Virus record (IMG/VR): IMGVR_UViG_2585427747_000002
Location: 1-33,552 of that record
Strand: one strand, 5' to 3'
Length of the DNA stretch: 33,552 bases
DNA from: a virus
Lineage: Duplodnaviria; Heunggongvirae; Uroviricota; Caudoviricetes
In this document: positions 4,452 through 31,609 of the stretch, one piece after another
How positions within the stretch are numbered: the stretch's first letter is position 1
How the letters are laid out: every line of letters starts with the position of its first letter
Translations under genes and position numbers: made by a program
The notes under the pieces: model-generated
The model's input: the letters and a program-made list of their open reading frames with translations, nothing else
Database searches by the model: none
Told to the model about the DNA's origin: nothing

Positions 4452-4878
4452 ACCGGGCTCCTCCTGCGATCCCTTCTGATACTGTCATCAGCATTACGTC
4501 ATCCTCCGTCATGTCCGCCACATCCGGGAAATCGGGGATAACTTCATTCCCGTCCGGGCCAAAACGAACGCCTCCGGCAAGCCCTGCCGCTTTCTGCATC
4601 AGCACATCATCTTCAGGCTCTTCGTCATCCTCACGCCGGTTCAGCAGACTGAAATCCAGCGGATGCATATCCGGATCGCTGAAAAACAGGCTGAGCACGG
4701 TGTACGTCAGCCCGGAAAAGTGCATATCCAGCAGAACATCATGAAAATAATGGGTACTGTAAAAGCGGTGCCAGTCGGCATACTCCGTGGATGACATCCC
4801 GGCAAGCATGGCGCGCCAGTCGGGTCGCCCCATCTCACGCGCCAGTTTCAGGGCAAAACTCAGCTCACCGTCGAACAC
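4444..4878 (-). CDS. T: Tail assembly chaperone T frame, expressed only as G-T fusion by -1 frameshift
   Basis: ORF (..FDGELSFALKLAREMGRPDW..) in -1 frame relative to G; slippery G_GGA_AAG on the minus strand at 4878-4884 at the 3' end of G, as in lambda. Confidence 0.9.
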   Translation of the reverse strand: MFDGELSFALKLAREMGRPDWRAMLAGMSSTEYADWHRFYSTHYFHDVLLDMHFSGLTYTVLSLFFSDPDMHPLDFSLLNRREDDEEPEDDVLMQKAAGLAGGVRFGPDGNEVIPDFPDVADMTEDDVMLMTVSEGIAGGARYG

Positions 4879-5273
4879 TTTCCCGCAGAAACAGGCTCTG
4901 CAGGCCCGGCGTCATCTGCCTGTTCAGGGGCATTATTCACCACAAACTCATACATACCGGACAGCCGGTACACCACGTTTTCAGCATGAGAAATTGCCTC
5001 TGTGGGCCAGGTGGTAAGCACTTCCTGCTCAATCTGTTTAACGGCTTCATTCATGGACGGCATCTGCGTCTTCTTCGGATGGTTATGCCACAGGGACATC
5101 GCCACCACAAAAGCGCCGGTTCTGATGACGTCTTCCACAGTAAACTTCCGGTTGCTGTCGGATTCTGCCTGCTGTTTCATCAGGGTGAGATGCTCAATAC
5201 GCTGCAGGGCTGACAGTTCAGAAAGCGTGACAGTCACGCCGTTATATTCAAATGATTCGGTTTTCAGGAACAT
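4860..5273 (-). CDS. G: Tail assembly chaperone G
   Basis: 137 aa, MFLKTESFEYNGVTVTLSELSALQRIEHL..., lambda gpG-like; ends ...AGKCSTVS with the slippery site in its last codons. Confidence 0.93.
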   Translation of the reverse strand: MFLKTESFEYNGVTVTLSELSALQRIEHLTLMKQQAESDSNRKFTVEDVIRTGAFVVAMSLWHNHPKKTQMPSMNEAVKQIEQEVLTTWPTEAISHAENVVYRLSGMYEFVVNNAPEQADDAGPAEPVSAGKCSTVS

Positions 5274-5288
5274 CGCTGACTCTCCGGA

Positions 5289-6029
5289 TTAACTGGCGGT
5301 GACGGTGATTTCTGCAACCGCAGCAAACTCACCATTACCGGATACAACCGGAATGTTGACCTTGCCTGCAGCAACGCCGTTCACGGTGATGGTCATACCA
5401 CTGACCGACACGGTGGCTTTTGTTTTATCCGCTGACACCGCACGGAAGCTCTTGTCGGTTGCGCCTTCCGGCTGGAATGCCACGGTCAGCGTGGTGCTCT
5501 GCCCTTTCACTACGGAAGCACTGGCTGGCGTTACCGTCATGCCGGTGGCCGCTGTTACCGTGCTGCGATCTTCTGCCATCGACGGGCGTCCCACATTGGT
5601 GACCTTCACCGTGCGGGTAATCACTTCCTTAGCCGTCACCGCTTTACCGATACTGCTGACCCAGCCACGGAACACATCGACCGTGCCGTTCGGGAAGCGG
5701 ATTTTATAGGCACGGGTATCACCTTCATTAAACCACGCCAGCAGCGCCTGCTGCCCCTGCTCTCCGGGCATCCACGCCAGCGTGAAGCTGGTATCTCCGG
5801 CAGATTTCTGCCCCTGCCCGGTCGCAGTCCAGTCCGCATCTTCATCATCGAGATAGCTGTCGTCATAGGACTCAGCGGTCAGTTCGCCGGGCGTCAGGTC
5901 TTTAACTTTTGCCAGACGCGACCAGTCAACGTCTGAAAGCGGGTTCGCATAAGGATCACCGTTCCCCTTATAAACCCACAGTGTGGTCCCGGCACCTTTC
6001 ACCGGCATTGTTGGATTTGGTACAGGCAT
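5289..6029 (-). CDS. V: Major tail protein V
   Basis: Track ORF extends to 6059 from an upstream alternative start; lambda gpV begins [14 protein letters not shown], giving start 6029 and 246 aa. Confidence 0.92.
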
Positions 6030-6036
6030 ATCGTCC

Positions 6037-6432
6037 TCACATTTCATAGGTAATGACATAAGTCAGATCGGCAGAACTCCACAGGCCCGCATCATCGTCG
6101 CGCCGGTAGTCATAGCCACTGGCCACCATACTGGTGATCAAATCTGACAGTGCCGGGATATCGCTCATCACCGGATAAATCCGGGACTCCATCCACGAAT
6201 CCAGCTCTGAATCCGGCACCTGAGCAGGCAGGAAAACTTCGATATGCAGCTCCGCCTGCCAGGTATCGCTGTCCAGCTCTTCGCCCGTGTATTCAGCGCC
6301 GGTGAGATAAACGGCAACTGCCGGAAAATCCGCCTCATCAAAAACAGCGGGGCGACCATCAAAAAGCGTCGCCCCGGTGTCATGCTTCTCCAGTGCATCC
6401 AGTACGGCTGCACGGAGTTCAGTATGTTTCAT
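6037..6432 (-). CDS. U: Tail terminator protein U
   Basis: 131 aa, [21 protein letters not shown]..., matches lambda gpU. Confidence 0.93.
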
Positions 6433-7007
6433 CGCTTTATTACCATTCTCAGTTGATGCTGCAGCGCATAGCCCAGCTCTTTCGGAAGACGTTCACGCCG
6501 TATCCGTTCAATATTCTGTTTAAACGCCGTGGTCAGCGGCACCGCCATCGGGATTTTCACCACATCAATGGGGTAACGGTTTTTCCCGGCCACACGCTGC
6601 ATGACATGCCAGCGGCCATTTTTCAGTTGCTGAATAAACGCGCCGGGAATACGACGGTTTCCCACCACAAGCACGCTGCCGCCACCTTTCAGGGCTGAAC
6701 GCTGCCCCTTTTTACGACGCCTGCGTCGGGACAGGACAATCCGCGCGTTACCCAGCTTTATTACGGGCAAATCCCCCCGGTTAACCCTGATTCTGGCCTG
6801 CGGATTTTTGACCGTGGCCCTTTTCAGCCTGGCCCTTTCCTTTACCAGTTTCCGGCGTACCTTTGTCTCACGGGCAACCTGTGACGCCGACTGCGATATC
6901 GCGGATGAAGCAACGCGGTTAATGGCCATTGCGGCGGCACCAGGCACCGCCGTTTTGCTGATACGGCTGAGGTTTTCAACGGCCTGCTCAAGACCTTTTA
7001 TGGCCAT
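6429..7007 (-). CDS. Z: Tail completion protein Z
   Basis: 192 aa, MAIKGLEQAVENLSRISKTAVPG..., matches lambda gpZ. Confidence 0.93.
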   Translation of the reverse strand: MAIKGLEQAVENLSRISKTAVPGAAAMAINRVASSAISQSASQVARETKVRRKLVKERARLKRATVKNPQARIRVNRGDLPVIKLGNARIVLSRRRRRKKGQRSALKGGGSVLVVGNRRIPGAFIQQLKNGRWHVMQRVAGKNRYPIDVVKIPMAVPLTTAFKQNIERIRRERLPKELGYALQHQLRMVIKR

Positions 7008-7018
7008 ACATCCCCCTT

Positions 7019-7372
7019 TCAGCGGCGACGGTTAACGGCAGGCGGTACGCCCCGCCCAAGCCAGAGATGACAGCTTCCACCATCATCCGGCGAAATCCGG
7101 TCTATCCAGAAGTTTTCCTCACCGATGGTCAGCGTGTCGCCGCGCCGCAGCTGCCGCACATCATCAGTCCGGACAAACAGGGACGGGCTGGAGCCTTCAA
7201 CGCGTACGCCCTGTCCGGCATAGCTGATATTTTCAGGATCATCAAAAACACCACGTATTACTGCGCCGGACTGCTCACCGGATGTCATGGTGGCTGACGT
7301 TCCCATGTACCCGCGTATCGTTTCATCGGCGCGGGCAATGGCAGCATCGAACAGGTTATCGAAATCAGCCAC
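7019..7372 (-). CDS. FII: Head-tail connector protein FII
   Basis: 117 aa, MADFDNLFDAAIARADETIRGYMG..., matches lambda gpFII. Confidence 0.93.
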   Translation of the reverse strand: MADFDNLFDAAIARADETIRGYMGTSATMTSGEQSGAVIRGVFDDPENISYAGQGVRVEGSSPSLFVRTDDVRQLRRGDTLTIGEENFWIDRISPDDGGSCHLWLGRGVPPAVNRRR

Positions 7373-7383
7373 AGCGCCTCCCG

Positions 7384-7779
7384 TTATTGCATTCTGGCCA
7401 GGCCACGTTCTGTCATTTCGGCTGCCACACCGGCAGAGACACGAAACGCCGTTCCCGGCAGCACAAATGCCACAGGTTCATCCCGCGTGGCGTGAAGTGC
7501 ATCAGTATGCAGCGTCACCAGTGCCACGACCGTGACCAGAGCAGCCGTATCAATCATGGTATCCGGCTGCTCTGATACCACCTCATTTTCATGTCCGGTC
7601 AGCGCATTTTCCGGTCTGAGAGGGGTATCCTGACCGGCAGCGTCATCCGTGTCATCAAGCTCCTCTTCCAGCTCTGCCACACGGAGCGCCAGTTCTTCTT
7701 TCGTCCCCGTCAGGCTGACATCACGGTTCAGTTGCTCACCCAGCGACCGGAGACGGACAATCAGTTCATCTTTCGTCAT
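7384..7779 (-). CDS. FI: DNA packaging protein FI
   Basis: Track ORF 7384..7818 has a 13-codon N-terminal extension; the lambda-like start MTKDELIVRLRSLGEQL is at 7779. Confidence 0.9.
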   Translation of the reverse strand: MTKDELIVRLRSLGEQLNRDVSLTGTKEELALRVAELEEELDDTDDAAGQDTPLRPENALTGHENEVVSEQPDTMIDTAALVTVVALVTLHTDALHATRDEPVAFVLPGTAFRVSAGVAAEMTERGLARMQ

Positions 7780-19651: not shown

Positions 19652-20197
19652 TCAGAACAACGAATAATTTAAAAACTCTATAATTTCTAAGATTTTTTCA
19701 CTTATCGCTGGAATGAAACGTGAAGCAAAATAGAGCCCCAAAAAAACCAATATTGAGTACGAAACCGTGATAGCGACTCTGTATTTTTTCTCGCCTCGCT
19801 TCACTCTCTCCCACTCAGTTTTAAGAATACTGGAACTATATTCAAAATACTGTCTGACCACATCTGTAATGTTAGATGAGCGATCCATTTTTAAAATGTA
19901 ATCCTCAATGATTTTCAAAAGCTGAGACTCTTCATTAGTTAAGTTTTTACTGGATAATCTAAGCTTCACTTTTGCGGAAAGAAAATAAATTTTTCCAGCC
20001 ACCTCAGGGAGCTTCTCAGGCGGAGTCGTGCGTAATTGTAAAAAGTTCTCCATCAATTCGGCTAACTCTTCCCTTAAACCATCTATCCACGCTTGCCGAA
20101 ACTCAGATGTTTTATTCTCCTTAGTGATAACAAGCCCCACTCCAGCTGCAGCTGCGGCAATAATTGCGGCGACAACTGAGGCTATCCCTGCATCCAT
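19652..20197 (-). CDS. Hypothetical membrane protein (181 aa; N- and C-terminal hydrophobic helices), AT-rich cargo
   Basis: ORF MDAGIASVVAAIIAAAAAGVGLVITK...VAITVSYSILVFLGLYFASRFIPAI...; SD-like gagggg upstream of ATG; no family recognised. Confidence 0.6.
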   Translation of the reverse strand: MDAGIASVVAAIIAAAAAGVGLVITKENKTSEFRQAWIDGLREELAELMENFLQLRTTPPEKLPEVAGKIYFLSAKVKLRLSSKNLTNEESQLLKIIEDYILKMDRSSNITDVVRQYFEYSSSILKTEWERVKRGEKKYRVAITVSYSILVFLGLYFASRFIPAISEKILEIIEFLNYSLF

Positions 20198-24506: not shown

Positions 24507-25196
24507 ATGAAAACAACACTCTCAGAAAGACTTAAAGAAGCCAGATTAGCGCGAGGCCTTACACAAAAGGCGCTTGGGGATTTGGTCGGGGTTAGCCAAG
24601 CTGCTATTCAGAAAATCGAAACAGGGAAAGCTAATCAAACAACTAAAATCGTGGAGATCGCGAACGCTTTGGGTGTGCGCGCAGAATGGTTATCTTCTGG
24701 CGTTGGAAATATGTCAGACAGTACAGTGCAACCAATACAACCAACTGTCAGCCATTCCAAATACTTTAAGATTGACGTTCTTGATATAGAAGTGAGTGCC
24801 GGGCCGGGTGTCATCAACCGTGAGTTTGTAGAAGTTCTACGTTCGGTTGAGTATTCGTTTGACGATGCTCGTCACATGTTCGATGGCAGGAAGGCGGAAA
24901 ATATCCGCATCATTAACGTACGCGGTGACAGCATGTCAGGAACGATTGAACCTGGTGATCTGCTGTTCGTTGATATCACGGTTAAATCTTTCGACGGTGA
25001 TGGTATCTATGCGTTTCTGTACGACGACACAGCCCATGTAAAGCGCCTGCAAATGATGAAGGATAAGCTGCTGGTTATCTCTGATAACAAGAGCTACTCA
25101 CCGTGGGACCCGATCGAGAAAGACGAGATGAACCGGGTGTTCATCTTCGGTAAGGTTATTGGGAGCATGCCCCAGACGTACAGGAAACATGGATAA
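24507..25196 (+). CDS. cI: CI repressor (N-terminal HTH, C-terminal LexA/S24-type autocleavage domain)
   Basis: 229 aa, MKTTLSERLKEARLARGLTQKALGDLVGVSQAAIQKIETGK... and C-terminal ...NVRGDSMSGTIEPGDLLFVD...AHVKRLQ... (Ser/Lys dyad context); not lambda immunity specificity. Confidence 0.9.
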   Translation: MKTTLSERLKEARLARGLTQKALGDLVGVSQAAIQKIETGKANQTTKIVEIANALGVRAEWLSSGVGNMSDSTVQPIQPTVSHSKYFKIDVLDIEVSAGPGVINREFVEVLRSVEYSFDDARHMFDGRKAENIRIINVRGDSMSGTIEPGDLLFVDITVKSFDGDGIYAFLYDDTAHVKRLQMMKDKLLVISDNKSYSPWDPIEKDEMNRVFIFGKVIGSMPQTYRKHG

Positions 25197-28650: not shown

Positions 28651-28805
28651 CGCATCCTCACGATAATATCCGGGTAGGCGCGATCACTTTCGTCTACTCC
28701 GTTACAAAGCGAGGCTGGGTATTTCCCGGGCTTTCTGTTATCCGAAATCCGCTGAAAGCCCAGCGGCTGGCTGAGGAGATAAATAATAAACGGGAGGCGG
28801 TATGA
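28647..28805 (+). CDS. Small hypothetical protein (52 aa), translationally coupled between exo and the PAPS-reductase gene
   Basis: Sub-60-aa ORF missing from the track: [52 protein letters not shown]; ATGA overlaps at both ends. Confidence 0.45.
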
Positions 28806-30046
28806 ACGAGGCAGCAATAATTATTGTCCCAACAGACATCAGCAAGAAAATTCGCGAAATAGAAGAGTCCTACAACAGATATATAAATGAATTTCGCATC
28901 CCTAATGATCATAAGATAATCGTGAATTATTCAGCAGGAAAAGACAGCACTGCCACACTCGCAGTGGCGCACACATTATTCGGCAAACAGGTACATGCTG
29001 TTATGGCAGACACGGATAATGAGCATAATCTAACTGTCGAATTCGCCAGGAGCATTCATGAGCAGATCGGTTGTAGCCCTGTGCAGGTTGTGAAGCGGAT
29101 TTACACTGAAGAAGATTTTACCAAACGACGAATTTATCTGCAAAAAAACTGGTCTAAACGACAGATGATCCGCATGGGAGCATACCGTGGCATAGTCATG
29201 CCTTCCCTCGCACGTTCTGACACCAAATTCGGGCAAGCCTGGAAGCGCACAGCAGAACGCTGGGGAATTGAGTTCGAAACTGCTCTTGATGCTGCGCTTT
29301 CCGTTATGCACCCATCCGGTAATAGCTTTTTGGATTGCTCCCTTCTGCATGGCAAGTTCCCTATGCTGCGCGACCGATTCTGTACAGACGAACTGAAAAT
29401 TCAGATAGCTTTCGACGCAGCCATAAAGCCGCTCCTTGATGCTGGCGATGTTATCGTACAATGGTCTGGTGTTCGCGCGGATGAGTCCTCTAAGCGCGCT
29501 GGATATGAGAGGTTTTCCCGCGATATGCGCGACGCCGATTTTCTCTACAACTTCCTGCCGCTCCACAAATGGACGGCTGAGGACGTATTCGCAGTTCACA
29601 AATATTTCGGAATTAAGCCAAATCCACTTTATATGCAAGGTGCGTCTCGTGTTGGCTGCATGAATTGCGTGCTATGCAACAAAGAGGAAATTGCAGAGAC
29701 GGCTGCGCGCTGGCCAGAGCACATCAAAAAGCACAAACAATGGGAGTTGAAGGTACGCCTTGCTAGTAGATGGGTACACTGGATGAGCGTAGGAGAGATA
29801 AGCCAACGCTGGATGAAACAGTTCAATCTGCCACTTGGTCGAAATATTCAACTTTTTGGGCTAAAACCTGATGTGCAACACATCGACTGGTCAGGATTTT
29901 ATGGTCCTCGTGGAGATCTTAATTCTCCGGGTGTTTATGAAGTCGTAGAGTGGGCAAAAACAGGGCGCGGTGGCAAGGTCTACGATCTTGTAAAAGCAAG
30001 TCTCGATATAGAGGTTTGCTCTTCACGCTACGGTCTGTGCGAATAA
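28802..30046 (+). CDS. PAPS-reductase-family protein (PP-loop ATP pyrophosphatase fold; IbrA/DndC-like)
   Basis: 414 aa with PP-loop motif (…NYSAGKDSTATL… near residue 43); length and architecture resemble prophage IbrA as recalled. No ParB-like partner gene follows. Confidence 0.7.
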   Translation: MNEAAIIIVPTDISKKIREIEESYNRYINEFRIPNDHKIIVNYSAGKDSTATLAVAHTLFGKQVHAVMADTDNEHNLTVEFARSIHEQIGCSPVQVVKRIYTEEDFTKRRIYLQKNWSKRQMIRMGAYRGIVMPSLARSDTKFGQAWKRTAERWGIEFETALDAALSVMHPSGNSFLDCSLLHGKFPMLRDRFCTDELKIQIAFDAAIKPLLDAGDVIVQWSGVRADESSKRAGYERFSRDMRDADFLYNFLPLHKWTAEDVFAVHKYFGIKPNPLYMQGASRVGCMNCVLCNKEEIAETAARWPEHIKKHKQWELKVRLASRWVHWMSVGEISQRWMKQFNLPLGRNIQLFGLKPDVQHIDWSGFYGPRGDLNSPGVYEVVEWAKTGRGGKVYDLVKASLDIEVCSSRYGLCE

Positions 30047-30057
30047 TACTAAGTTAT

Positions 30058-30660
30058 TTACTCATTATTTTTTGATAATACAACTTTCTGCCAAGTTATC
30101 TGGTTACGTTGAAAACTATCTTTATTTATTGACGTAACTCGCAATGTTTTCAGACCTAACTGAGACGCTAACTCAAGAAGTTCCTCAGTATTAACAACGT
30201 TAATGTTTCTATCTGGTTCGGGAGGTCCCAAGCGCAATGTAATTATCATTCTCCCATTCAATGTTAAAAGATCAGTTAGCGTCTCTAGTGAGATTTTTTG
30301 CTCTTTTTTTGAAAGATGCATCCATACAGCACTGACTAAAATAAGGTCGAACTTTAGATTCATTGCTTTAACACTATGAAGAAAAGGCAATGAATCATCT
30401 AACCATATAATATGGTTAGATTTATAATATGAAGATGCCAAATTTCGCATCTTTTCACTTGGTTCAACAGCTATTACTTTATAACCTAATTCATCTAACG
30501 CAGCAGCATCACGGCCGGAACCTGAACCGACATCCAAAGAGACACCCTTAGATTGTAAAATAAACTCTTCAACATCCTGAAAGATAGAGTAAAAATCAAG
30601 TGATATATAATCGGCAAATAAGCGATCAGCATTATTGTCATAAAACTTCCACGAAGTCAC
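30058..30660 (-). CDS. Class I SAM-dependent methyltransferase (200 aa; small-molecule / TehB-like type), AT-rich cargo
   Basis: Motif I LDVGSGSGRDAAALDELGYKVIAVEPS and post-I acidic residue, motif DLILVSAVWMHL; overlaps the upstream membrane-protein gene by 4 nt (operon). Confidence 0.7.
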   Translation of the reverse strand: MTSWKFYDNNADRLFADYISLDFYSIFQDVEEFILQSKGVSLDVGSGSGRDAAALDELGYKVIAVEPSEKMRNLASSYYKSNHIIWLDDSLPFLHSVKAMNLKFDLILVSAVWMHLSKKEQKISLETLTDLLTLNGRMIITLRLGPPEPDRNINVVNTEELLELASQLGLKTLRVTSINKDSFQRNQITWQKVVLSKNNE

Positions 30661-31241
30661 TTTGATAATCCTGATTTTGCTTCGATAAATAATCCTGACT
30701 CAATATTTTTAATTGTTGCTTTGTATGTATTATGTGAAATGTCTTTTGAAAACAAGTTTGGATGATATACCCCAGCAATATTAACAAAGAAGCAAACAAT
30801 AAGCATTACTGCCCAGCACGACACTACTATGTAACCAGTTTCCTTATTATCATAGCTAGAGGGCAATTTAAATCCAGCGTCTCTAGTAATTTCATTTAAA
30901 ATATAGTTTTTTGAAGGGTCTTCAATGTTTTTTTGTAGTGCTATTTTCGAACCAATTAAAGACCTTAAGCGATAAAGTGTAATCATTGTTGTGAAATCAA
31001 ACAATGCTAACACTGCAAAGATAATCCATAGGGAACTTTCATTTGCCAGTGTTGTTGCATACCACAACCCACCATTGACAGCAATTACGAAACTAGGGAT
31101 TTGCCACATGAGCTGATTTAAAGCCCGCATGTGTTGTCCTGCTTCAAGATAAGTAATCTCCTGCAGCTTCTGATACCAACGGATTGCCTCAATTTTTAGA
31201 TTTTCGTTAATCTGTTGCTGTTGCTGTTGCTGATTTACCAT
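30657..31241 (-). CDS. Hypothetical membrane protein (194 aa, about 3 TM segments, N-terminal poly-Gln), AT-rich cargo
   Basis: Start MVNQQQQQQQINENLK... at 31241 (track ORF has an 18-codon upstream extension); hydrophobic segments IPSFVIAVNGGLWYATTL, LWIIFAVLALFDFTTMITL, YIVVSCWAVMLIVCFFVNIAGVY. Confidence 0.6.
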   Translation of the reverse strand: MVNQQQQQQQINENLKIEAIRWYQKLQEITYLEAGQHMRALNQLMWQIPSFVIAVNGGLWYATTLANESSLWIIFAVLALFDFTTMITLYRLRSLIGSKIALQKNIEDPSKNYILNEITRDAGFKLPSSYDNKETGYIVVSCWAVMLIVCFFVNIAGVYHPNLFSKDISHNTYKATIKNIESGLFIEAKSGLSK

Positions 31242-31507
31242 GTAATCCCTGCTCAACGAACTGAAACTTTTAATGATGCTATCACAACTTATCAAGAAGA
31301 TGAATTTCGTTATTTAAATTTAATATATCGGAGGCTTTTATCAGAACTTATACATAATACAAGCCCGAAGGCTGTCACCAGACAGGAGCATCAATAACAT
31401 TTGCCGTAGCGTACTGAAGAAGCACCGCGAAACGGTAACGCTGAGGGATTCACACCGACTCATTTAAGCCTGGCGATCGGCATGTTAAACGGCATCTTTA
31501 AGGAGCG

Positions 31508-31603
31508 ATGAACATGAAAAGCAAAATCATCAGGGAGCTACAGGCTCCTTTTTTATTATTCGCATTCACCCTCAAGCGTATTAACCAACAATTCAGAGAT
31601 TAA
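31508..31603 (+). CDS. Candidate small ORF (31 aa) with strong RBS upstream of the traR-like gene
   Basis: TAAGGAG 5 nt before ATG; MNMKSKIIRELQAPFLLFAFTLKRINQQFRD; contains the terminator-like hairpin at 31533-31556; stop is 6 nt before the next start codon. Confidence 0.3.
   Translation: MNMKSKIIRELQAPFLLFAFTLKRINQQFRD
31533..31556 (+). terminator. Terminator-like hairpin with T-tract upstream of the traR-like gene
   Basis: GGAGC-tacag-GCTCC followed by TTTTTTATT on the plus strand. Confidence 0.5.
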
Positions 31604-31609
31604 TGGAAG

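Follow-up and report, generated by a model that had tools for sequence, protein, structure and literature searches.

Within the early-left (pL) operon of a lambdoid prophage, two genes run against the direction of their neighbors, and this locus raises the question of what they do there and whether they stand on their own. The prophage lies in a stretch of DNA of 33,552 nucleotides (nt) from a virus of the Caudoviricetes (IMG/VR record IMGVR_UViG_2585427747_000002), the whole of which is called the window below. One of the two minus-strand genes encodes a putative membrane protein and the other a class I S-adenosylmethionine (SAM)-dependent methyltransferase (Table 1). The methyltransferase gene converges on a gene of the 3'-phosphoadenosine-5'-phosphosulfate (PAPS) reductase family. 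A first-pass annotation of the sequence had considered the two genes as a free-standing insert and this third gene as a mere lambda-type flank. Based on the genomic company that relatives of the pair keep, we instead lean toward a different reading: the pair would be a methyltransferase module, tethered to the membrane, that goes along with phosphorothioation-type systems in which a PP-loop enzyme inserts sulfur. That a functional link between the pair and such PP-loop systems exists at all is, judged from the sequences compared, very probable.

The membrane protein and the methyltransferase are best understood as one unit. As the first-pass annotation had noted, the two genes overlap by 4 nt and are likely to be co-translated. 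The shared stop/start sequence is GTGA, with an AGGA motif located 8 nt 5' of the GTG start of the methyltransferase gene; such an overlap implies translational coupling of two subunits. Relatives of the membrane protein were gathered from 18 loci in genomes (one genome per species), 18 loci in IMG/VR and 39 loci in metagenomes (individual loci are given by L numbers). The methyltransferase gene follows directly 3' of the membrane protein gene, on the same strand, in 18/18 genome loci and 18/18 viral loci. Among the metagenome loci with readable downstream sequence it follows in all but three weak partial matches, one of which is a fusion of an RNase_T domain with the membrane domain. The identical 4-nt overlap is present in L005, L011, and L019. 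Homologs of the pair down to about 30% identity were found in Gamma-, Beta-, and Alphaproteobacteria as well as in cyanobacteria, always paired, and this conservation argues that both genes are genuine. In Alphaproteobacteria and Nostoc (L020-L028), both parts are joined in a single open reading frame (ORF) of 338–383 amino acids, and fusions of this kind account for at least 14 of the 150 best profile hits. A search with the fused Nostoc protein led to more than 100 clusters of 335–390 amino acids (Mesorhizobium, Rhizobium, Agrobacterium, Sphingomonas, and others), all of them annotated merely as 'class I SAM-dependent methyltransferase'. Fusion and translational coupling together point to the membrane protein as a subunit of the enzyme or its anchor. 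The same two coding sequences are annotated in RefSeq at a 99.9% identical locus of Escherichia coli, as 'class I SAM-dependent methyltransferase' and 'hypothetical protein'. The pair is nevertheless not a common one: it was detected in 29 of 5426 complete E. coli genomes and in one of 50,697 phage records.

The catalytic subunit has the hallmarks of a class I methyltransferase, namely a GxGxG motif I (LDVGSGSGRD), an acidic residue after strand 2 and a seven-stranded Rossmann-like fold, while the Pfam families Methyltransf_11, 25, 23, and 12 all exceed their gathering cut-offs. The motifs seen at first inspection held up in an alignment of 39 homologs: the SAM-site residues D43, G45, G47, G49, R50, D51, E66, and P67 are invariant, and so are the A-V-W-M-H stretch after strand 4 (SAVWMH in the motif IV region) and the residues Y7, Y18, F23, W86, R143, R151, and W190. 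Split and fused forms share unchanged catalytic motifs. In accordance with the earlier view that motifs of DNA methyltransferases are missing, we rejected a DNA N6-adenine or N4-cytosine methyltransferase. A (D/N/S)PP(Y/F/W) motif of the DPPY type was not found in the protein, and its 200 amino acids leave no room for a target-recognition domain. Two fold searches gave no DNA methyltransferase among the matches listed, which comprised small-molecule, protein or tRNA methyltransferases only. By its sequence the enzyme is of the small-molecule or protein type of class I methyltransferases and not a DNA methyltransferase. Among its closest structural neighbors are UbiG, N-methyltransferases of phosphoethanolamine and phosphatidylethanolamine, and Rv0560c, a toxin methyltransferase; this likeness is generic at 12–20% identity. 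The precomputed Pfam matches of its homologs include TPMT and TehB. Mad2 of the methylation-associated defense system (MADS) was rejected as well. The best PADLOC match, to mads_2 (7.4e-15), relates residues 36-198 to profile positions 290-446 of 492 and thus comprises the Rossmann core only. This core is what both proteins have in common, whereas the characterized Mad2, on which methylation of a DNA motif depends, is predicted to be an N6-methyltransferase (10.1101/2023.03.30.534895), and our locus contains neither the (D/N/S)PP(Y/F/W) motif nor any other mad gene.

For the membrane protein, hydropathy and an AlphaFold model (predicted local distance difference test, pLDDT, 78) gave three hydrophobic helices, as many as the membrane-spanning segments claimed before, at residues ~46-66, 69-90, and 136-158. 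In the model, a long N-terminal helix continues into hydrophobic helix 1, and helices 2 and 3 follow; the C-terminus forms a short beta-hairpin. An alignment of 31 homologs revealed a nearly invariant core motif, R-x-L-N-Q-L-M-W-Q-[IV]-P ... G-G-L-W-[YF], with R-[LI]-R after helix 2, while the loop between helices 2 and 3 varies in length by up to 60 residues. The N-terminal poly-glutamine tract emphasized before is real (7 Q), but it is not conserved among the homologs in this alignment and is no feature of the family. Neither Pfam nor PHROGs, NCBIfam or PADLOC gave a single match to the membrane protein, and no fold match was obtained in the Protein Data Bank (best E-value 0.57). A profile search of 1.84 billion sequences found relatives in just 232 cluster representatives.

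What, then, is the third gene? Its product carries the motifs SAGKDS, RFCTDELK, GCMNCVLCN, and a C-terminal YGLCE, and belongs to the PAPS-reductase/PP-loop ATP pyrophosphatase superfamily (PAPS_reduct, PF01507, 75.4 bits against a cut-off of 22.5, 7e-21). PADLOC profiles of SspD (5.7e-19), BrxP (3.9e-16), and DndC (5.8e-9) match it. With these three proteins it has the PAPS_reduct domain, the SAGKDS PP-loop and the cysteine clusters in common; it differs from them in staying below the curated cut-offs, in lacking an adjacent P-loop NTPase and in belonging to a phage lineage (PHROG 424). The protein remained under the cut-off of every curated NCBIfam family tested, and CysH was rejected (NF002537, 50.4 against 154; TIGR02057, 23.8 against 254; TIGR00434, 34.3 against 165). 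Among solved structures, a marginal match to CysH was the only one akin to the phage PAPS reductase. Contrary to the view of a chance flank, this gene turned out to be the constant phage partner of the pair. It is convergent with and abuts the methyltransferase gene in 17 of 18 IMG/VR contigs and in 8/8 phage-type metagenome contigs. Among the 5426 E. coli genomes, this PAPS-reductase allele is present in 29, as is the pair, and the listed accessions coincide. The three-gene cassette is 99.5–99.9% identical in the listed E. coli genomes and at least 99% identical in 28 records, and an inducible phage which carries it, phi458, has already been isolated. Furthermore, the adjacency in phages outlasts allele exchange, as sequence identities demonstrate in both directions. 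Between L046 and L056 the membrane proteins are 82% and the methyltransferases 73% identical while the PAPS reductases are only 39% identical; between L042 and L056 the corresponding values are 51, 57, and 92%. The PAPS-reductase gene probably belongs with the pair, and the three genes would form one convergent cassette.

The PAPS-reductase family PHROG 424 is also found as a solitary gene in 186-like, P2-like, and Burkholderia phages. In nine IMG/VR contigs (L102-L108, L114, L126), a PAPS reductase 72–82% identical to that of the window is followed by a P2 gpA-type replication protein of 750–813 amino acids, the start of which overlaps or abuts the PAPS-reductase gene; phage 186 is arranged likewise. 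This arrangement indicates that one PP-loop gene serves two different phage backbones.

The company that the pair keeps across phages and bacteria is our main result. Of the 50 distinct copies for which 3 kb or more of surrounding DNA was available, 40 have a sulfur-system gene (PP-loop, Dnd or Ssp) in that DNA. The survey of gene neighborhoods that the first-pass annotation had proposed thus revealed conserved pairing and a recurrent setting. In Methylotenera, Chitinimonas, and Pseudomonas (L012, L013, L019), sspD-sspC-sspB, with full-length PADLOC matches, are divergent from the pair, an arrangement shared by L076-78, while L073 carries the pair, sspB, sspC, and sspD on a single strand. Genes for an FtsK-like protein of 1819 amino acids and a cysteine desulfurase are located 5' of the pair in L018. 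With respect to dnd systems, the fused gene of Nostoc (L025) comes first and is followed by dndB-dndC-dndD-dndE-dndA. In L022 and L130, dndB precedes the fused gene with a 4-nt overlap, and L083 and L087 show related layouts of dndB followed by the fused gene. L021 comprises dndC-D-E-A, a gene for 867 amino acids and then the fused gene. The pair of Burkholderia cenocepacia, together with an HNH gene, has dndE and dndD as neighbors.

A blind test gave the same picture. Four fused homologs from the Nostoc search were picked only by genus and available sequence length, with their context unseen, and all four proved to be within dnd loci. In Sphingobium, dndA-E-D-C-B are divergent from an HNH gene that is followed by the fused gene. 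On a plasmid of Rhizobium phaseoli, dndB and then the fused gene converge with genes for TusA, DndE-FtsK, DndD, and DndC. The loci of Paragemmobacter and Seohaeicola are integrase-flanked islands in which only DndC, a small ORF, DndD, and DndE-FtsK/HerA accompany the fused gene. The integrase-flanked dnd islands L131 and L132 appear to be minimal ones.

These loci contain further proteins worth recording. In dnd islands of Alphaproteobacteria, DndD is followed by a fusion protein of about 510 amino acids, in which an FtsK/HerA-type ATPase comes after an N-terminal DndE, and between DndC and DndD lies an ORF of 66–71 amino acids, which Pfam assigns to Sp-DndD in L130. In L012 and L013, a protein of 800 amino acids with two HATPase_c-type domains is encoded after sspD in the operon; PADLOC gave no match for it, and it is a candidate partner of sspBCD. 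HNH nucleases are encoded beside, or in one operon with, the membrane-methyltransferase gene of several dnd loci. They are mutually unrelated; the co-operonic ones of L008 and L129 share the HNH motif only.

The membrane domain itself is not restricted to methyltransferases. In some proteins an RNase_T (DEDD) exonuclease, or else an unknown domain of 250 amino acids, takes the place of the methyltransferase in the fusion. The RNase_T fusion in L079 sits between the genes for an FtsK-like protein of 1792 amino acids and a cysteine desulfurase, while in L047 and L048 a gene for a HIT-family hydrolase adjoins the fusion.

How might such a module work? We picture one enzyme in two pieces, a soluble methyltransferase and a membrane subunit that would tether or activate it at the inner membrane; translational coupling here and fusion elsewhere suggest that the subunit holds the methyltransferase there. 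The PP-loop enzyme, transcribed from pL, would put sulfur on a nucleic-acid or nucleotide target. The tethered methyltransferase, with its own promoter independent of pL and presumably expressed in the lysogen, would methylate this sulfur or a sulfur by-product, and methylation would either complete a thio-to-methylthio mark or remove the mark. Through the abutting convergent layout, transcription interference may lead to a reciprocal expression of both halves, resembling restriction-modification (R-M) systems. The sequences show the structure of the genes, their pairing and fusion, conserved catalytic motifs and the linkage to PP-loop, Dnd, and Ssp genes; that the two proteins form a complex, that the lysogen expresses them and that they depend functionally on the PP-loop enzyme is what we infer.

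The features of the DNA around the pair bear on these steps. With 11 bp, the spacer between the convergent stop codons is too short for separate terminators, so that the 3' ends of both transcripts must overlap, and a scan found no terminator-like site after the methyltransferase gene or within the spacer. Equally tight convergent junctions with dnd operons exist elsewhere (8 bp in L028, 10 bp in L131, and 15 bp in L130). In the region 5' of the pair, which should contain its promoter, a promoter scan gave fewer consensus-like sites than shuffled sequence.

That the sulfur delivered by the PP-loop enzyme, or a sulfur by-product, is the methyl acceptor is a speculative proposal which we put forward tentatively. 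Sulfur suggests itself because the PP-loop enzyme is the sole component common to the Dnd, Ssp, and phage contexts and because phosphorothioate or thiol sulfur is a far better acceptor for SAM than phosphate oxygen. In addition, S-methylation is proven for generic enzymes of class I, for example MddH (PMC11445057), and the alternative heads on the membrane domain act on nucleic acids or nucleotides. One might go further and speculate that the module acts on DNA sulfur placed by DndC/SspD-like enzymes, either forming an S-methyl phosphorothioate mark or erasing the mark via methylation and hydrolysis. Temperate phages with the minimal version, a lone DndC-like enzyme plus the module, would then mark, unmark or police DNA at the membrane. 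This more specific scenario is doubtful, and we regard it as improbable in its entirety.

Several observations weigh against a module that accompanies sulfur insertion. To begin with, 10 of the 50 copies have no sulfur gene nearby, among them the nin-region copies and the HipA-linked betaproteobacterial islands described below. The linkage in phages is also one-way: the pair is present in only 9 of 38 viral contigs with a PAPS reductase of 70–100% identity, while in the remaining contigs this gene is followed by same-strand ea-type genes or a P2 gpA-type replication gene. In every enterobacterial version, the pair and its partner lie on opposite strands and differ in GC content by 0.12–0.2 (0.32–0.40 for the pair and 0.47–0.54 for the PAPS-reductase partner). 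Phosphorothioate synthesis, as far as known, needs a P-loop NTPase, that is DndD, SspC or BrxC, and a complete system comprises a PAPS-reductase-domain protein, such an NTPase and a DNA-binding partner, DndE or SspB (PMC12914056). The phage cassette, however, has no P-loop NTPase. Searching the window by tblastn with the membrane protein, methyltransferase, PAPS-reductase, and HTH_73 queries led to the three genes only, without a complete Dnd or Ssp system, and no DndD/E- or SspB/C-type genes are listed at the 99.9% identical annotated locus. Thus the phage enzyme may make no phosphorothioate. On the other hand, BrxP is a PAPS-reductase-domain protein outside Dnd and Ssp that makes phosphorothioate DNA (PMC12914056). 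Furthermore, the model offers no reason for a membrane anchor, and the topology is in conflict with it: three hydrophobic helices directly precede a domain that is necessarily cytoplasmic, and the positive loop after helix 2 worsens this conflict.

Among the alternatives, one survives better than the others. The pair could be a self-contained prophage module for defense or superinfection exclusion, of the abortive-infection or RexAB type, in which the methyltransferase senses or modifies and the membrane protein is the effector. Its nearness to dnd, ssp, and PAPS-reductase genes would then reflect nothing but the clustering of defense genes and insertion hotspots. We consider this possible but unlikely. 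The pair, as AT-rich as claimed before (GC content 0.352 and 0.348), is antisense to the pL operon and deviates from the PAPS-reductase gene (0.472), from its flanks (0.47–0.52) and from the whole window (0.505). Composition and orientation thus fit the moron proposed by the first-pass annotation, and other lambdoid prophages carry the pair likewise in moron positions, between exo and xis or in the nin region. The nin-region copies are again antisense and have a divergent HTH_73 regulator, and no PAPS reductase was found within 10 kb of them. In a betaproteobacterial subclade, a HipA_C-domain kinase of 422–544 amino acids is encoded directly 5' of the pair on the same strand. These HipA-linked islands carry Mrr and a ResIII helicase, and dnd or ssp genes are not visible in them within 8 kb. 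The partial match of the methyltransferase to Mad2 would also suit a defense module. However, the adjacency to sulfur genes appears too specific for mere clustering, since it holds for four fifths of the scored copies and for all the blind loci, in at least eight architectures that include start/stop overlaps with dndB. The link to the PAPS reductase persists where the latter has been exchanged for an allele of 39% identity. Downstream of this gene, same-strand ea-type or gpA genes are otherwise found instead of varied antisense cargo. These relatives, the allele exchange and the independent bacterial contexts also make an insertion hotspot after the PAPS-reductase gene unlikely. None of the PADLOC v2 systems is matched by either protein, except for the partial match just mentioned. 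In a neighbor-joining tree of the methyltransferase domains, which carries no support values, copies without visible sulfur genes fall inside clades that have them.

The regulator of the nin-region copies deserves a separate remark. A protein of 80 amino acids with an HTH_73 domain (PF24718) is encoded divergently just 5' of the pair in prophages with and without a PAPS reductase (L003-7, L035, L043, L050, L058) and is probably a local regulator. The window gave no tblastn match to it.

Rather unlikely, too, but closer to a role with sulfur, is the possibility that the pair represents the restriction or sensing side of a phosphorothioate module. It would be an analog of SspE, DndFGH, PbeABCD or DndI that acts at the membrane on unmarked or mis-marked DNA. 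Its genes are co-operonic with dndB (L022, L130, L083, L087) or HNH nucleases (L008, L129) and not with dndCDE, to which they are usually convergent, like many R-M systems. In the minimal mobile islands L131 and L132, the fused gene is all that is added to DndC, the small ORF, DndD, and DndE-FtsK. An RNase_T exonuclease can stand in for the methyltransferase on the membrane domain, and 83.9% of the sspBCD clusters are without a known restriction partner, sspE or sspFGH (PMC8092258). In the prophage, a PP-loop gene expressed from pL opposite an antisense pair would mimic the split into modification and restriction. Nevertheless, a SAM methyltransferase with an intact active site would be an odd restriction effector, and DndH/SspH-like FtsK proteins or ScoMcrA-type HNH nucleases in several of the loci could be the true restriction part. 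We give this role and methylation of sulfur similar weight, and both are not mutually exclusive.

Improbable is a role in lysogenic conversion, in which the methyl acceptor would have nothing to do with sulfur chemistry and would be a membrane component or small molecule, for instance a quinone, a xenobiotic or the head group of a phospholipid, with the membrane subunit presenting the lipophilic substrate. The tethering to the membrane fits this idea, and so do the structural neighbors UbiG, Rv0560c, and the lipid-related N-methyltransferases. Methyltransferase homologs without a membrane partner exist in Vibrio and in Streptomyces (L010), the latter in an ordinary metabolic context. However, the structural likeness is generic, and neither the linkage to dnd, ssp, and PAPS-reductase genes nor the RNase_T head on the membrane domain would be accounted for. 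Finally, a TehB-like determinant of tellurite, selenite or other oxyanion resistance, a lead of the first-pass annotation, is highly implausible. The cut-offs of the NCBIfam TehB equivalogs are missed about tenfold (NF008992, 24.1 bits against a cut-off of 303; NF008405, 18.9 against 218; TIGR00477, 18.4 against 219.5), the Pfam TehB match (23.0 against 20.4) covers profile positions 29-113 of 193 only and thus the shared Rossmann core, the pair's membrane protein of 194 amino acids with three hydrophobic helices is unrelated to the 10-helix TehA, and the genomic context is one of phages and phosphorothioation loci. What remains in common with TehA/TehB is that a small SAM methyltransferase of class I has a membrane protein as its partner.

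Other known systems resemble the pair in part as well. Like the pair, SspE, SspFGH, DndFGH, PbeABCD, and DndI are encoded beside dndBCDE or sspBCD, often divergently or convergently, on mobile islands. However, they are nucleases, NTPases or translocases without kinship in sequence or domains to a membrane-anchored methyltransferase pair, and unlike them the pair is also located beside a lone phage PP-loop gene without DndD/E or SspB/C. MddH, TPMT, TmtA, and thiol and halide methyltransferases share at most 20% identity with the methyltransferase, which is no closer than N-, O-, and C-methyltransferases are, and none has the membrane subunit of the pair. Lambdoid morons and exclusion genes expressed in the lysogen, such as rexAB and sieB, are AT-rich as well; located apart from the lytic operons or running against them, they join a membrane protein to a cytoplasmic partner. 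The pair has no homology to them and, in contrast, is accompanied by a conserved gene that belongs to the lytic operon. TIGR04096, 'DNA phosphorothioation-associated putative methyltransferase', is a family defined by its association with dnd loci. No NCBIfam model of this kind was reported for our methyltransferase at E-values up to 0.01, while the presence of TIGR04096 in the library is unconfirmed. In the open-access literature covered, the combination of this membrane protein and methyltransferase is not described, although an earlier description remains possible. The pair is absent from the 2024 reappraisal of Dnd systems (PMC10853773) and from the papers on DndI, SspFGH, and the P2 hotspots, and the phi458 paper makes no mention of its ORFs. 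A study on type 4 bacteriophage exclusion (BREX) notes in passing an unspecified methyltransferase beside cyanobacterial dndBCDE that 'may function independently' (PMC12914056). We read the pair as an unrecognized accessory module of phosphorothioation-type systems, which would be present here in a minimal prophage form.

Besides the cassette, the prophage itself shows some distinct features. According to the 99.9% identical annotated locus, the plus-strand early-left genes are a kil-like gene, gam, bet, exo, DUF1317, and the PAPS-reductase gene; beyond the minus-strand pair follow a ZapA-like remnant, TraR/DksA, DUF4222, a xis-like gene, int, and tRNA-Arg. Positions 12000-33552 are not covered beyond 80% in one place by any complete E. 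coli genome, the best reaching 71% at 96% identity, and the prophage is a mosaic without a counterpart as such among the 5426 genomes. In its nin region, a protein of 181 amino acids with an N-terminal hydrophobic helix (…ITKENKTSEFRQAWI…) is encoded. Homologs with 33–37% identity adjoin the HTH_73 gene and the pair in other loci (L005-7, L088-89, L041), so that this protein may be another moron traveling with the module. Directly 3' of the cI-like S24 repressor gene, at the position of rexAB in lambda, lies an ORF of 287 amino acids; the closest annotated E. coli prophage has an SEN1984 lipoprotein gene there instead.

Table 1. Positions of the genes and sites discussed, in the window and in related loci.
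Feature	Position	Strand	Remarks
Window
Putative membrane-subunit gene	30657..31241	-	194 amino acids from ATG at 31241; long ORF 30657..31295
Class I SAM methyltransferase gene, catalytic subunit	30058..30660	-	200 amino acids, GTG start
GTGA stop/start overlap of both genes	30657..30660	-	4 nt
Spacer between convergent stops, methyltransferase and PAPS-reductase genes	30047..30057		11 bp
PAPS-reductase-family PP-loop gene, pL operon	28802..30046	+	414 amino acids; Pfam PAPS_reduct, PADLOC, PHROG 424
Region 5' of the pair	31242..31609	-	Should contain the pair's promoter
Frameshifted ZapA-like remnant	31327-31511	+	Annotated pseudogene, within the region 5' of the pair
Terminator-like hairpin with T-run	31532-31550	+	Just upstream of the TraR/DksA gene, within the pair's 5' region
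Gene for 181-amino-acid protein, nin region	19652-20197	-
cI-like S24 repressor gene	24507-25196
ORF of 287 amino acids	25263-26126	+
Related loci
DndE-FtsK/HerA fusions of ~510 amino acids	L020 841-2367; L130 9272-10798; L131 9073-10608; L132 9280-10818
800-amino-acid protein with two HATPase_c-type domains	L012 65-2467; L013 57-2483
HNH nucleases	L129 6992-8008; L008 2535-3539; L026/L027/L086 ~5340-5610
HipA_C kinase genes	L015 6283-7917; L067 1106-2374		Also L014, L017, L064, L069
HTH_73 genes	L003 5665-5907; L005 5669-5911; L035 7673-7912; L050 186-425; L058 135-374
Alternative-head fusions	L079 7227-8483; L047 354-1358; L048 6001-7272		L047, P0229; L048, P0266
Homologs of the 181-amino-acid protein	L005-7 and L088-89 4590-5027; L041 7288-7812
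P2 gpA-type genes after PAPS reductase	~5215-7690		Nine IMG/VR contigs

Taken together, most dnd and ssp modification clusters are without a known partner, and the pair family offers a candidate for this role. It joins these partnerless clusters with the puzzle of what the widespread 'PAPS reductase' of phages does. The E. coli prophage version comprises three genes and, with phi458 as an inducible phage, represents a tractable system. Should the module act as an effector, phosphorothioate-based immunity would gain a partner of a new type. If sulfur is indeed methylated, this would add a new chemical step to the sole known modification of the DNA backbone, and S-methyl phosphorothioate would be a new, neutral mark.

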